From an uncultured Acidobacteriota bacterium (GTDB taxonomy: Bacteria; Acidobacteriota; Thermoanaerobaculia; Multivoradales; JAHEKO01): 64,000 nt of DNA. Below are positions 22,732 through 33,100 of this stretch, piece by piece (position 1 is the stretch's first letter; every line of letters begins with the position of its first letter). The notes under the pieces were generated by a model, which saw nothing but the letters and a program-made list of their open reading frames with translations, was not told where the DNA came from and did not search any database. The stretch spans positions 160,001-224,000 of the forward strand of contig CAVQNG010000003.1 in assembly GCA_963713825.1 (NCBI GenBank), given 5' to 3'. The translations under genes and the position numbers were made by a program.

Positions 22732-24654
22732 GTGATCTTGACTGGATCTCATCCGTCACGGGTTTGTATCCGGCGCCTGCTGCAGAGTCTCGCCGGGTCG
22801 CTACCCGTCTTTCTTCTGGCTGTCTTTGCTCCCGGGACATCAGCCGCCTCCCTTTCCCAGCCTGTGGTCTTCTGCAGCCTTCCCGCTGACAAGGCACCGG
22901 CTAGCGGTGTTGCAGATGGAATGCTGCCATCCGATTACGGCCAGGGTGCTTCGCTGATGGTTCTACAGCCCGACGGCAGCACAGTGCGCTTGGCAGGTGA
23001 CTTCGCGAGTGCCTGCGACCCTGACGTTTCCTTCGATGGAGAGCACATCCTGTTCGCGGGCCAGAAGAACCCGGGAGATTCCTGGAACATCTGGGAGATG
23101 AGCAACGACGGCACCGGGGTGCGGCAGATCACGCATGAAGCGCTCGACTGCCGTCGGCCCATCTACCTCTCGACGTTCTACACCATCACATCGTCCGAGC
23201 CCTGGTACACGATCCTGTTCGAGCGGCAGGACGGCGTCTTGAACGAAGCGGGCACAGCCCCCGGAACCAGCCTCTACACGGTTCGCCTCGACGGCTCCGA
23301 GTTGCGGCGCATCACGTTTCACCCTGGCAACGACCGCACGCCCTTCCTGATGCAAGACGGTCTTCTGCTCTTCTCCGGATGGAGGATGCTATCGGATCCT
23401 CGCTTTCCCACCGGAAGGATCGGGCTCTACGGAGTCCAGACCGACGGTATCGACTATGCCTCTTTCGGCGGTCTGCAGGGATCGAGAATCCAGCACATGC
23501 CGACCCTGACGACAGACGGGCTCGTGGTCTTTGTCGAGGCTGACCAGGTGGACTGGGACGGCGCAGGCCGTCTGGCCGCCGTCCGAGCGCAGCGCCCCCA
23601 CCTCTCCTACTCCTCTCTGACCGACGAAGACCAGGGTCTGTTCCATTCTCCATCGCCATTGGCGGATGGCAGCGTGCTCGTGTCCCATCGTTCCGCAACA
23701 GCCGACAGCATTTTCGGACTCAGCAGGTTCTGGCCTGACAGCGGACGGAGGGAGGAGGTCGTCTACCTGCCCGGAGCCCACATCCTTCACGCCAGGCTGA
23801 TGGCTCCGCGGCCGGAGCCAGACGGCCGCTCCAGCACGGTGCGACCCGAGTCACCGACGGGCAAGCTCTACTGTCTGGACGTCTACGAGAGCGACACCGA
23901 CATTGCATCGCTCGAGCGAGGCACGATCGAGCGAGTACGGGTCATCGAAGGGGTGGCGACCGGGCAGAGTACGACCCCGGTCGCCAGACGGCTCCTGGGC
24001 GAAGCACCGGTAGAGGACGACGGATCGTTCCACATCGACCTGCCTGCCGATCTACCCGTCGAGCTACAACTCCTCGACGAAAGCGGCCAGGCCCTGGCGA
24101 GCTGCGATTGGATCTGGGTCAAGAACCGCGAGTACCGTGGTTGCATCGGCTGTCATGAGGATCCCGAGTTGACCCCAGAGAACCGCTTCGTACAAGCTGC
24201 GGCCCGACCAGCCAATCAGCTGACGCTGCCACCCGACAGGCGCCGCAGCGTGACCTTTCGACAGCATGTCCTGCCTCTCCTCCAGGCTTACTGCAGCGAC
24301 TGCCACGGTGAAGCTGGTGGAGTTCTGCCCTTTGGTTCACTGGCCGATGAGGCCGGTGCAATGGGGGCCTACGATGCGCTGACCGCCGGACGCGATGGCG
24401 AAGGGTCGGCCCGTCGCCCCCTGGTCACTCCTGGCAGCGCGACCACGAGTCCTTTGATCTGGCAACTCTTCGGTCGGGACACCTCGCAGACGCCGGACGC
24501 TGGAACGAACACGATGACTCTGATCGCGCCTGGACACCTCGATCTGCTGAGCGACGAAGAGCGCCGGGTCTTCACGGAGTGGATCGACCTCGGGGCCCAG
24601 TGGGACCTGCCGCCGGAGAGCTCTGTAGACCAACAAGGAGATGCCAGGCCATGA
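22732..24654 (+). CDS. Hydrazine synthase alpha-subunit-like protein (TolB-like propeller, HZS-alpha middle domain, 2 c-type hemes); start approximate
   Basis: DPDVSFDG..ILFA, WNIWEM..DG.G.RQIT; RLLGEAPVEDDGSF...PAD.P..LQLLD..G; CIGCHE; CSDCH; EWID.GA. Confidence 0.82.
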   Translation: MILTGSHPSRVCIRRLLQSLAGSLPVFLLAVFAPGTSAASLSQPVVFCSLPADKAPASGVADGMLPSDYGQGASLMVLQPDGSTVRLAGDFASACDPDVSFDGEHILFAGQKNPGDSWNIWEMSNDGTGVRQITHEALDCRRPIYLSTFYTITSSEPWYTILFERQDGVLNEAGTAPGTSLYTVRLDGSELRRITFHPGNDRTPFLMQDGLLLFSGWRMLSDPRFPTGRIGLYGVQTDGIDYASFGGLQGSRIQHMPTLTTDGLVVFVEADQVDWDGAGRLAAVRAQRPHLSYSSLTDEDQGLFHSPSPLADGSVLVSHRSATADSIFGLSRFWPDSGRREEVVYLPGAHILHARLMAPRPEPDGRSSTVRPESPTGKLYCLDVYESDTDIASLERGTIERVRVIEGVATGQSTTPVARRLLGEAPVEDDGSFHIDLPADLPVELQLLDESGQALASCDWIWVKNREYRGCIGCHEDPELTPENRFVQAAARPANQLTLPPDRRRSVTFRQHVLPLLQAYCSDCHGEAGGVLPFGSLADEAGAMGAYDALTAGRDGEGSARRPLVTPGSATTSPLIWQLFGRDTSQTPDAGTNTMTLIAPGHLDLLSDEERRVFTEWIDLGAQWDLPPESSVDQQGDARP

Positions 24655-31862: not shown

Positions 31863-33100
31863 CCCACCAGATCTTTTCCACGGGAATCCTGGTGCTGGTC
31901 CTCCTTGCACGCGCTCTCCACGGTCAGGCTCCACCTCCAGAGGAACGTCCGGACGACGAGCCGTACCACGATTTCCGACTTCAGCCGCTGGAGTATCTCG
32001 GCCCCGCCGGCGAGGGCCCGGATCCCGCGAGCCTCACCGAGGTGCCTATCGGATGGTTCGGACCCTCCGACCCTGCACAACCTCTGTATGGCGACCTCTG
32101 GACGGCAACATCTCTTGCTGTCGAGGAGGTGAACGAGGCAGGCGGTCTAGACGGGCTTCCCGTCCGGCTCATACCGCGATGGTCGGAGAATCCCTGGGGC
32201 ACAGGTGTCGGACAGATCGCCCGCATGGTTCACGAGGACCAGGTGCTGGCGATTCTCGGTTCCGTGGATGGCCCAGGAACCCACCTCGCCGAGCAGGTCG
32301 TGGTGAAGGCCCGGCTCCCCCTGGTCAGCCCGGTCAGTACCGACGAGTCAGTGAACCTGGCAGGGGTACCCTGGATGTTCTCGGTCGCGCCGGGAGACCA
32401 CCTCTGGGCTCCCTTGGTGGCAAGCGGAATGCTCGAGATGATCGGCGACGGGAACTTCGCTTTGCTGGCGACCACCGACCACGACTCCCGCCTGGCCGCG
32501 AAAGAGCTCGTCGGAGCCCTGGCTGCCCTCGAACGTGGCCCGGCCCTGCGTATCGACCTGCAGCCGGGTACCATGGACCTGAGCACCTCGCTGGGGCGAA
32601 TCGGAGACGACTCCCCTTCGGCCGCGCTGGTCATCGCTTCGGCACCGGACAGTGCCACTCTGATACGCGCTCTTCGGCAGCGCGGCTTTGCCGGCCCGAT
32701 CTTCGGCGGACCGCAGCTCGGACGCCGCCTCTTCATGGCGTCGGCTGGAGCGGCAGCCGAGGGTGTGACTCTTCCCCTGCTCTTCGACTCTACAGATCAG
32801 GCTAGCGAAGCCGCCAAGTTCGCCCAGAGATTTCAGGCTCGAACCGGATTCCCGCCTGATTGGGCCGCGGCGCACACCTACGACGCGACTCGGCTGCTGC
32901 TCGAATCGATCCGCCGAGCGGGCCTGAGTCGCGCTGCGATTCGCCAGGCCCTGGTCGAGCTCTCCCCTTGGCATGGAGTCGTCGGACTCATCGAGTGGGA
33001 CCCGACCGGCCAAAGCCTCCGACCGGTGACCCGACTTGCAATGATTCGGCAAGGCAACATCGTTCCCATGCCGGATCCCCGAAATCCCAGGACCGACTAG
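31859..33100 (+). CDS. Second LivJ-like solute-binding protein, paralog of the preceding gene (start uncertain)
   Basis: VPIGWFGP, AVEEVNEAGG, AAHTYDA, GVVG.I; strong GGAGGAGG RBS before an in-frame ATA at 31859. Confidence 0.8.
   Translation: MAHQIFSTGILVLVLLARALHGQAPPPEERPDDEPYHDFRLQPLEYLGPAGEGPDPASLTEVPIGWFGPSDPAQPLYGDLWTATSLAVEEVNEAGGLDGLPVRLIPRWSENPWGTGVGQIARMVHEDQVLAILGSVDGPGTHLAEQVVVKARLPLVSPVSTDESVNLAGVPWMFSVAPGDHLWAPLVASGMLEMIGDGNFALLATTDHDSRLAAKELVGALAALERGPALRIDLQPGTMDLSTSLGRIGDDSPSAALVIASAPDSATLIRALRQRGFAGPIFGGPQLGRRLFMASAGAAAEGVTLPLLFDSTDQASEAAKFAQRFQARTGFPPDWAAAHTYDATRLLLESIRRAGLSRAAIRQALVELSPWHGVVGLIEWDPTGQSLRPVTRLAMIRQGNIVPMPDPRNPRTD

Follow-up and report, generated by a model that had tools for sequence, protein, structure and literature searches.

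A multihaem gene cassette related to hydrazine synthase, with a predicted ligand-binding module, in a sediment acidobacterium

The window analysed here is a stretch of 64,000 nt from G000, the genome (5.42 Mb, 96% complete) of an uncultured acidobacterium; positions given without a contig name are coordinates in this window. Six open reading frames (ORFs) on the + strand, g1 to g6, occupy positions 22732-33100, as established from the ORF list and translation. We consider it likely, with a probability of about 0.7, that in this Thermoanaerobaculia-type sediment acidobacterium they constitute a cassette coding for a twelve-haem redox core and a ligand-binding module, and that the enzyme is not a hydrazine synthase (HZS). 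Operons of this type were already published between 2023 and 2025 (PMC10732223, PMC11828985 and PMC12758564; all three are cited here from the available parts of their text). The elements that are new in the present work are the fusion of the propeller with both binding proteins, the predicted binding of g4 to g5, and a His at the position of alpha-His772 in one subclade.

The first gene, g1 (22732-24654, + strand), has a GTG start and codes for an exported HzsA-like dihaem protein of 640 aa. It is composed of an N-terminal propeller, an HZS_alpha middle domain with the motif CIGCH at aa 471, and a C-terminal domain that bears CSDCH at aa 521; these two are its CXXCH motifs. The next gene, g2 (24651-26276, +), codes for an exported FG-GAP / ASPIC-UnbV (CRTAC1-like) propeller protein, and g3 (26266-29148, +) for an exported decahaem HzsB-HzsC-like fusion of 960 aa. 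Three parts can be distinguished in g3, all on the + strand: an N-terminal part (26368..27300) with two tetrahaem cytochrome c554-like modules and eight CXXCH motifs between aa 41 and 333, a seven-bladed YVTN propeller similar to HzsB (27358..28410), and an HzsC-like / CCP-MauG-like dihaem domain (28438..29145) with CHSCH at aa 750 and CINCH at aa 874. The complete set of ten CXXCH motifs is located at aa 41, 93, 120, 155, 219, 271, 298, 333, 750 and 874. The fourth gene, g4 (29161-30375, +), codes for an exported propeller of the Reg_prop type and is the most conserved gene of the cassette. It is followed by g5 (30372-31862, +), coding for an exported LivJ-type binding protein of the HAAT family with an N-terminal extension of about 100 aa, and by g6 (31859..33100, +), coding for a second, less conserved LivJ-type binding protein. 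The start of g6 is uncertain: it may be an ATA codon at 31859, overlapping the stop of g5 behind GGAGGAGG, or an ATG at 31748, which leads to an Arg-rich N-terminus; the gene ends at 33100.

Overlaps of 4 nt (g1/g2), 11 nt (g2/g3) and 4 nt (g4/g5), and a gap of 12 nt between g3 and g4, where GAGGAGGGG precedes g4, indicate that the genes form one operon. All six proteins have a charged N-terminus followed by a hydrophobic stretch, judged by eye to be signal-peptide-like. The original prediction, made from the sequence of the window, had described six co-oriented, overlapping or abutting genes with such starts, and this description is confirmed by the ORFs, by the domains and by the collinearity of 40 of 44 related loci (see below). 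A consensus scan of positions 21400-34600 for promoters and terminators was uninformative on the ends of the operon, since the 2 promoter-like and 9 terminator-like sites are in no excess over those in shuffled sequences (means of 1.8 and 5.8, respectively).

The proteins g1 and g3 are distant homologues of all three HZS subunits. The g1 protein matches the HZS_alpha profile with 70.9 bits (cut-off 26.6) and the HZS alpha chain 5c2v_A with an E-value of 1.1e-40, in four collinear stretches that place residues 72-628 of g1 on residues 56-771 of the chain and cover all three domains. Residues 373-708 of g3 match the beta chain 5c2v_B (E 6e-38), and residues 730-960 match the gamma chain 5c2v_C (E 1.9e-19). 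The identity of the g1 and g3 parts to the HZS subunits is 23-36%. For comparison, the peroxidases in the PDB match the C-terminus of g3 with an E-value of 7.5e-05 or weaker. The c554 part of g3 matches cytochrome c554 (1bvb_A) with an E-value of 4.2e-07, and the Cytochrome_C554 profile gives 111 bits in two stretches containing the eight CXXCH motifs, in agreement with the built-in c554-like modules proposed earlier. Other profile matches of g3 include a YNCE propeller, CCP_MauG (26.8 bits, cut-off 25.6) and weakly scoring models of the MtrC/DmsE type. Its C-terminus is matched by CCP_MauG, MauG, MbnH and RoxA-type models, and its propeller resembles weakly the beta subunit of quinohaemoprotein amine dehydrogenase (TIGR03907, E 2e-11; fold match 1jju_B, rank 24).

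Comparison of predicted structures gave the same assignment. The best fold match of the g1 model is 5c2v_A/D, with an E-value of 7.6e-32 over 750-767 columns, and the next fold is TolB at 7e-9; the HZS-alpha fold expected of g1 is thus present, although the global template-modelling (TM) score of the model to HZS alpha is only 0.42 and its mean predicted local distance difference test (pLDDT) value, 59.7, is poor. In the g3 model the propeller alone is confident (pLDDT about 90), the gamma-like part having a pLDDT of about 30. The best fold match of g3 is that of its propeller to 5c2v_B (E 1.2e-28, TM 0.90 normalised to the target, root-mean-square deviation 3.4 A). With matches to 5c2v_A, 5c2v_B and 5c2v_C and fold matches for alpha and beta, the claim that the operon holds counterparts of all three HZS subunits is borne out. 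By analogy with the HZS heterotrimer, g1 and g3 may well form one complex. The protein encoded between them, g2, matches the profiles FG-GAP_3 (152.7 bits) and UnbV_ASPIC (76.5 bits); its sole match to a solved structure is cartilage acidic protein 1 (9etn_A, E 8.6e-24).

There is strong support for the conclusion that the cassette enzyme does not make hydrazine and is not HZS, on the basis of scores below the family cut-offs, missing active-site residues, a separate branch in the tree and a genome in which no hydrazine dehydrogenase was found. Against the HzsA equivalog model NF052339, g1 scores 167.3 bits, where the cut-off is 800. The fused beta-gamma model NF052342 gives 213 bits for g3 (cut-off 1250), and the separate beta and gamma models give 163.9 and 85.7 bits (cut-offs 560 and 625); none of these cut-offs is reached. 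True HzsA occurs in 17 of 401 sampled Planctomycetota genomes, where it has 1518 bits or more; the best of the remaining matches has 244 bits. In a true hzs locus (L104), hzsB, hzsC and hzsA all exceed their cut-offs (HzsA 1598.8, HzsB 766 and HzsC 741 bits). Related loci were taken as the best 80 of at least 570 stretches coding for a g1 relative, with one genome per species. A tree of 85 alpha-type proteins separates 6 true HzsA from 79 cassette proteins with a support of 100 and about 2.7 changes per column; it was built by a quick search with SH-aLRT (Shimodaira-Hasegawa-like approximate likelihood ratio test) support only, and one of the 80 loci, in which the g1 match does not span query residues 80-620, was omitted.

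The residues of the HZS active sites were compared individually. The equivalent of alpha-Tyr591, which in HZS follows the His of the CXXCH motif by four residues as the axial ligand of haem alpha-I, is absent: true HzsA has CSGCHDGSY, the window has CIGCHEDPELTPENRF with no Tyr after the first CXXCH, and the Tyr591 column is occupied by Glu in 79 of 79 cassette proteins. About 50 residues following the alpha-I motif, as well as several insertions of alpha, are deleted in g1 relative to HzsA. The region of alpha-Cys303, a zinc ligand in HZS along with alpha-His587, is deleted or changed, and none of the 79 cassette proteins has a Cys there; both Cys of the HzsA stretch, either of which may be Cys303, are affected. 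The zinc-binding Cys of alpha is reported to be missing also in Scalinduaceae (PMC12758564). The HzsB loop that extends into the tunnel has the sequence CEAENGE; it aligns to TRLLQGW in g3, and all three of its Glu are replaced in 6 of 6 homologues. The equivalent of gamma-His144, located in HZS between the two gamma haems, is a Trp (PFKW) in the window and in six other cassette homologues (7/7). Gamma-Cys165, which makes the third covalent link to haem gamma-I, is kept (DRVCG vs QRQCGPR) in 8 of 8 aligned rows. The C-terminal motif EWIDLGAQWD of g1 aligns to HzsA, and the alpha C-terminus is full-length and includes CSDCH at aa 521.

The position of alpha-His772, in HZS the distal His of haem alpha-II, required a different count. 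In the window protein a His precedes EWID by 14 residues, and true HzsA and 5c2v_A have theirs at the same spacing, as judged by alignment only. The large MAFFT alignment has a gap at the His772 column, and the MAFFT column count was replaced by a count based on the spacing to the EWID anchor, which is missing from 7 of the 80 aligned rows. A His at this spacing is present in 6 of 72 anchor-bearing cassette proteins, namely the window protein and its five closest relatives. The other 66 have Gly, Glu, Lys, Asp, Arg, Gln, Val or Thr.

The number of haem motifs varies among the alpha-homologues. Only one CXXCH is found in 18 of the 79 cassette proteins (those of L015, L045, L050, L055, L056, L058, L061, L067, L072, L074, L079, L081, L082, L084 and L086-L089). 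In 5 of 6 single-CXXCH homologues compared at the second haem site, this site reads C-x4-CH (e.g. CATQACH) in place of CXXCH; haem alpha-II may thus be bound there by a non-canonical motif.

A whole-genome search of G000 found a single HZS-like locus, and nothing in the genome exceeded the curated cut-offs for HzsA, HzsBC or hydrazine dehydrogenase; for the last of these (NF052343) the best score was 71.1 bits, compared with a cut-off of 900. Since, in addition, the nearest relatives are Acidobacteriota of the class Thermoanaerobaculia, the operon does reside in a non-anammox genome, as had been supposed. NirK and NrfA had no match in G000 with the queries used, and the search for the cd1-type enzyme (NirS) returned weak propeller matches only, g3 among them. 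Three octahaem genes of the hydroxylamine oxidoreductase (HAO) family are present (G000 C3:1777645-1778952, C5:179442-180971 and C3:103345-104973); the whole proteins score 64-88 bits against the hydrazine dehydrogenase model. The genome is rich in multihaem cytochromes: 27 ORFs have at least three CXXCH motifs, with up to 26 motifs per ORF.

Some of these cytochromes are densely clustered at G000 C4:315358-337463 and C5:505122-532604, where there are ORFs with 26, 21, 18, 16 and 11 motifs. The clusters include a decahaem protein of the GSU2203/DmsE type (345.8 bits, cut-off 325), and their content suggests extracellular electron transfer in this acidobacterium. Two more YVTN-propeller ORFs give weak HzsB-type matches, C5:528406-528735 (37 bits), which adjoins the C5 multihaem cluster, and C14:224189-224626 (28 bits).

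The second half of the cassette has a different character. The fusion of these proteins in other genomes and the predicted docking of g4 on g5 strongly support the view that g4, g5 and g6 constitute one physical ligand-binding unit. The g4 protein matches Reg_prop (24 bits, cut-off 20.4) and the solved domains of hybrid two-component sensors 4a2l_A and 3v9f_A (E 1.4e-20). The binding proteins match Peripla_BP_6 with 145.7 bits (g5) and 131.7 bits (g6); g5 also matches ANF_receptor (76.7 bits) and the HAAT binding protein 4gnr_A (E 2.2e-21), other HAAT matches being weaker. Among the matches listed, 28 of 120 longer proteins related to g4 also carry binding-protein domains; 14 of them are 1190-1272 aa long and 14 are 768-1009 aa long. 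They come from several sources, including records named Thermoanaerobaculia and Thermoguttaceae. In one of them, P0121 (1268 aa), residues 36-404 of g4 are matched at 78% identity, g5 from its residue 39 at 79% and g6 from its residue 34 at 57%, in this order and in a single chain without inner signal peptides.

The complex of g5 (residues 39-491) with g4 (residues 33-390) was predicted with a score of 0.89, and the best of three controls scored 0.00. Among solved complexes 58 of 80 attain this mark, and among mismatched pairs 2 of 110; these counts hold only roughly here, the prediction having used custom alignments of 14-15 rows each. The runs share at least 61% of their contacts, and the pLDDT of the partners is at least 88. 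In the predicted interface, residues 51-54 and 81-96 of the g5 extension, an invariant YTGPGR stretch among them, lie against one face of the g4 propeller and contact every blade. The sequence-match lists of g4 and g5 have no PDB entry in common, so the score is unlikely to stem from a solved complex known to the predictor. The operon encodes no ABC permease or ATPase, and in the flanks of 41 loci (the window and 40 relatives) neither is among the 14 most widespread families; the rest of the genome was not searched for them.

In one g4 homologue, at L050:9136-10254 in a metagenome-assembled genome (MAG) of Limisphaerales, the matched stretch is interrupted by an in-frame stop codon, for which a sequencing error, a pseudogene or recoding could account.

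The cassette is widely distributed. At least 570 of at least 598 pattern-matching stretches in the species genomes encode a g1 relative, and the protein collection contains at least 1363 such relatives among 8000 scored candidates, all of them unnamed or 'hypothetical'. The best 80 loci belong to Planctomycetota (50), Acidobacteriota (20), Verrucomicrobiota (6), one Chloroflexota MAG and unclassified MAGs. The order g1-g6 is collinear in 40 of the 44 loci that extend at least 8.8 kb downstream of g1, and these represent four phyla. In the remaining four, g6 has moved elsewhere (one locus), g6 is not found beside g5 (two loci) or there is a run of N (one locus). The two haem genes, g1 and g3, occur together in every related locus that reaches far enough, with g2 between them, so that the co-occurrence of the haem proteins in other genomes, expected from the original prediction, is observed. 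The median identity to the window proteins is 45% for g1, 62% for g2 (68 loci), 60% for g3, 68.5% for g4 (52 loci), 66% for g5 and 45.5% for g6. The propeller g4 and the first binding protein g5, with the highest values, are thus the most conserved parts.

Within the phylum of the window the distribution is patchy. Full-length decahaem g3 is found in 10 of 401 sampled genomes, including G000 and a genome of the same genus (85% identity), and in none of the other sampled genomes of the same order; shorter relatives of g3 with the beta-gamma part only (40-46% identity) occur in other sampled genomes of the phylum. On the g1 tree the window falls into a fully supported clade of four rows together with MAGs of Acidobacteriota/Thermoanaerobaculia. 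At least three changes are needed to account for the distribution of Acidobacteriota on this tree, a scatter that would fit transfer or paralogy.

Near-identical DNA is present in metagenomes of salt-marsh, marine and freshwater sediments from 11 studies, one of which is possibly the source sample. In one metatranscriptome library, parts of g1, g3 and g4 are matched by contigs with 99% identity or more, a weak hint that the operon is transcribed; in the RNA run X20 parts of the operon are uncovered.

The coverage of g2 is uneven. In all four sequencing runs compared many contigs match the FG-GAP repeats at window positions 24800-25950 partially, with joints and loose ends, and the depth over this region is two to five times that of its flanks. 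This is explained by the repeat-like nature of the FG-GAP sequence, which other organisms in the samples have as well.

Two families of neighbouring genes suggest what the binding module may recognise. In the survey of the 41 loci, a gene of the Rid/YjgF family lies just upstream on the same strand in 18, fused in some Planctomycetota to an FkbO-like N-terminal part, and a carbon-nitrogen hydrolase gene adjoins g6 in 8. The dihaem g1 and the decahaem g3, with g2 encoded between them, supply the twelve-haem core. The following scheme for its action we regard as possible but decidedly tentative. The g4-g5-g6 unit would bind a small solute, probably one containing nitrogen, such as an amino acid, amine or amide, and deliver it to this core. 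The reaction would occur at the gamma-I-like haem with its Cys cross-link, next to which a Trp of the CCP/MauG type is predicted, at the alpha-I-like haem, here presumably with ordinary His ligation, or at both. The eight fused haems of the c554 type would carry electrons between the active site and periplasmic carriers. The copies of the carbon-nitrogen hydrolase are 76-89% identical and come mostly from related Planctomycetota, so their proximity may reflect shared ancestry of the neighbourhood rather than function.

Several points weigh against the reading of the cassette as a redox core served by a ligand-binding module. No result of the analysis bears directly on the substrate or the reaction, and the idea of a nitrogenous solute derives from the names of binding-protein families and from neighbours that the window itself lacks: no Rid, carbon-nitrogen hydrolase or TPR + FG-GAP + ASPIC gene is found in its flanks. 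The binding of g1 to g3 is deduced from homology and co-occurrence only, and the models of the haem domains, with the low pLDDT values given above, are unfit for the analysis of pockets or of a tunnel. The score of the g4-g5 complex is a model confidence and not a measurement. Its interface is only mildly enriched in invariant columns on the g4 side (18/34 vs 109/324, p 0.04) and on the g5 side (15/30 vs 139/423, p 0.07). P0121 alone of the 28 fused proteins was resolved domain by domain, the other 27 being classified by length and domain list; no fused g1 was found among the longer proteins at an E-value of 1e-30 or better, which is weak evidence. The RNA library may contain DNA, and its contigs give neither strand nor level of expression. 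Finally, genes of this kind have been taken to be functional hydrazine synthases (PMC11828985).

That last interpretation, under which the window would come from an unrecognised anammox bacterium outside Planctomycetota with a working HZS, appears to us extremely unlikely. Homologues of all three subunits, the haem motifs, the retained third Cys of gamma-I and the His at the alpha-His772 position in the subclade of the window are compatible with it, and transcription and predicted heterotrimers are reported in its favour (PMC11828985). However, the scores are far below the cut-offs (167 vs 800 and 213 vs 1250 bits), and in the tree the cassette proteins and true HzsA lie on opposite sides of a long branch with full support. 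The equivalents of alpha-Tyr591, alpha-Cys303 and the Glu of the beta loop are absent, and gamma-His144 is replaced by Trp. The best match to hydrazine dehydrogenase is 71 bits vs 900, NirK, NirS and NrfA were not found with the queries used, and the cassette occurs in many heterotrophic lineages. The analysis in PMC12758564 is likewise negative. The earlier proposal of a periplasmic redox enzyme related to HZS is supported, but an N-N chemistry has no positive support, because the active-site residues of HZS alpha are missing. We regard as very improbable an 'organic hydrazine synthase', in which the binding module would hand an amino acid or amine to the HZS-derived core for organic N-N or N-O chemistry. 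In such an enzyme the amine would be coupled to, or oxidised with, a nitrogen-oxide-level intermediate from the gamma-I-like haem, and the product of the upstream Rid-family gene would clear imine- or hydrazone-type products.

Three other functions can be envisaged for the haem proteins. Cytochrome c554 classically serves hydroxylamine oxidoreductase as its electron partner, and the two c554 modules fused in g3, the three HAO-family genes of G000 and the unusual third Cys link retained at the gamma-I-like haem would all suit a periplasmic reductase or detoxifier of nitric oxide (NO), hydroxylamine or nitrite. Fed by c554, this enzyme would perform the gamma-type half-reaction only, and the binding module would be regulatory or structural. 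This function is rather unlikely: the search of the genome yielded no canonical NO-forming nitrite reductase, the conservation and fusion of the propeller and two binding proteins are left unexplained, and the replacement of gamma-His144 by Trp is typical of peroxidases and MauG (PMC12758564). The same Trp, which occupies the place of the catalytic Trp in CCP and MauG (PMC12758564), points instead to a peroxide- or oxygen-driven enzyme of the CCP/MauG/MbnH type, whose high-valent dihaem site would oxidise a partner protein, a peptide or an organic solute, with g1, g2 or the binding module acting as substrate or scaffold. The CCP_MauG, MauG, MbnH and RoxA-type matches in the C-terminus of g3 and the weak resemblance of its propeller to the amine dehydrogenase beta subunit are in line with this function. 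We nevertheless consider it unlikely, as the peroxidase matches are marginal (26.8 vs 25.6 bits; 7.5e-05 or weaker in the PDB) and HzsC is closer (1.9e-19). The known enzymes of the MauG type, to our knowledge, lack such a set of eight extra haems. The cassette is also present in strict anaerobes such as Syntrophobacter fumaroxidans (PMC12758564), a lifestyle that fits peroxide or oxygen poorly. The cassette might, finally, serve mainly as an electron conduit for extracellular or mineral (Fe/Mn) redox processes, with propellers and binding proteins as scaffolds and no small-molecule catalysis. The wealth of multihaem cytochromes in G000, including the GSU2203/DmsE-type decahaem protein, and the weak MtrC/DmsE-type matches of g3 agree with this idea, which is however quite improbable. 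The cassette is distant from the other multihaem loci of the genome, includes no porin or outer-membrane component, conserves an active-site-type haem with an extra Cys link, and is common in lineages for which metal respiration is not known.

The neighbourhood of the operon differs among the loci. A large TPR + FG-GAP + ASPIC protein is encoded nearby in 24 of the 41 loci. Upstream of g1 the window carries a gene for an M55 D-aminopeptidase (21578-22510, +; DppA-like, 310 bits). It was ruled out as a member of the cassette, being absent from all 80 related loci, including the closest one, L011; its absence at the equivalent place in L011 indicates that it was probably inserted recently. Farther upstream, two overlapping large ORFs (17253-21454, - strand) diverge from the operon. 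One codes for an AAA ATPase with a C-terminal ECF sigma factor domain (PF07638, 183 bits), and the other for a protein with TPR and AAA ATPase domains. Both adjoin g1 in L011 (76% and 82% identity) but not in the other loci. Downstream, the DEAD-box helicase gene g7 (33116-34327) was also ruled out as a cassette member, with no match in the 80 loci.

With at least 570 species genomes and cross-phylum identities of 60-68% for four of its six proteins, the cassette is among the most widespread uncharacterised multihaem systems. It is the nearest known relative of the hydrazine-making enzyme, and the reaction that it catalyses bears on the origin of anammox and on periplasmic redox chemistry in sediments and soils. 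If an 'organic hydrazine synthase' did exist here, it would stand to hydrazine synthesis in anammox as its functional ancestor or sister and would be widespread in both soils and sediments. For ligand screens aimed at the substrate, the g4-g5-g6 unit provides a defined, soluble starting point. Such genes have already been counted as anammox markers in metagenomes (PMC11828985). The acidobacterial case shows that this practice is unsafe, in view of the family cut-offs, the active-site residues and a genome in which neither a hydrazine dehydrogenase nor an NO-forming nitrite reductase was found.

The closest published description is that of Hagglund et al. 2025, Genome Biol Evol (PMC12758564), who distinguish four clades of co-located alpha and beta-gamma homologues of HZS and conclude that they are not hydrazine synthases. 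In their clade I, the alpha homologue lies upstream, an FG-GAP gene is found in between, and two binding-protein genes follow downstream; the beta-gamma protein has eight extra haem motifs in two c554 domains, and alpha has a second haem site. The named carriers are Aquisphaera giovannonii, Thermogutta terrifontis, Novipirellula artificiosorum, Syntrophobacter fumaroxidans, Paludibaculum fermentans and Opitutus terrae. The window shares with clade I the order g1-g2-g3, the eight c554 haem motifs, the second alpha haem and the downstream position of g5 and g6. It also shares the residue pattern, with alpha-Tyr591, alpha-Cys303 and the beta-loop Glu missing, gamma-Cys165 kept and gamma-His144 changed to Trp. 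On the basis of layout and residues, the locus is likely to be a member of the clade I cassette; the named clade I species are not among the loci of our tree. The two differ in that alpha-His772 is given as absent in clade I (PMC12758564), whereas a His stands at that spacing in the subclade of the window, and in that the window adds a new carrier, a Thermoanaerobaculia-type acidobacterium. The available text on clade I (PMC12758564) makes no mention of the g4 propeller or of fusions between g4 and the binding proteins.

Two other reports describe similar genes. Dalcin Martins et al. 2023 (PMC10732223) found hzsA-like genes upstream of fused hzsBC-like genes in MAGs of Phycisphaerae UBA1845 and proposed a broader enzyme family with other substrates. 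Jiang et al. 2025, Nat Commun (PMC11828985) described a 'previously undescribed HzsA' in cold-seep MAGs of ten phyla, ten Acidobacteriota MAGs among them, counted such genes as anammox potential, reported transcripts and predicted heterotrimers. By description, these genes resemble those of the window in the position of the hzsA-like gene directly upstream of the fused hzsBC-like gene and in their Sec signal peptides, and the carriers, as here, include Acidobacteriota, Planctomycetota and Verrucomicrobiota (PMC10732223, PMC11828985). The view of a broader family (PMC10732223) agrees with the present reading of a multihaem redox core distinct from HZS; the anammox view (PMC11828985) is unsupported by the tests of residues, scores and genome content. 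In the literature on HzsA-like and non-anammox hydrazine synthase homologues we found no experimental characterisation of the cassette.

Compared with the anammox HZS of Kuenenia stuttgartiensis (5C2V/5C2W), the window has the same three-domain, two-haem alpha and a CCP-like dihaem gamma with a third Cys link, and the fusion of beta and gamma is shared with the HZS of Scalindua. It differs by eight extra haems, by the reversed gene order with alpha first, and by four extra conserved genes. The C-terminus of g3 shares with the CCP/MauG/MbnH superfamily two CXXCH motifs at the usual spacing and a Trp at the catalytic Trp position. The match to this superfamily is marginal, however, and the g3 domain carries the HzsC-type extra Cys link and is fused to a propeller and eight haems. 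Unlike the Bacteroides sensor propellers (4A2L and 3V9F), g4 is without a kinase or transmembrane part. The binding proteins g5 and g6 differ from the LivJ-type HAAT proteins (4GNR, 3HUT and 1Z15) in having no permease or ATPase partner in the cassette, and g5 differs further by its conserved N-terminal extension of about 100 residues, which is predicted to plug into the face of the g4 propeller.

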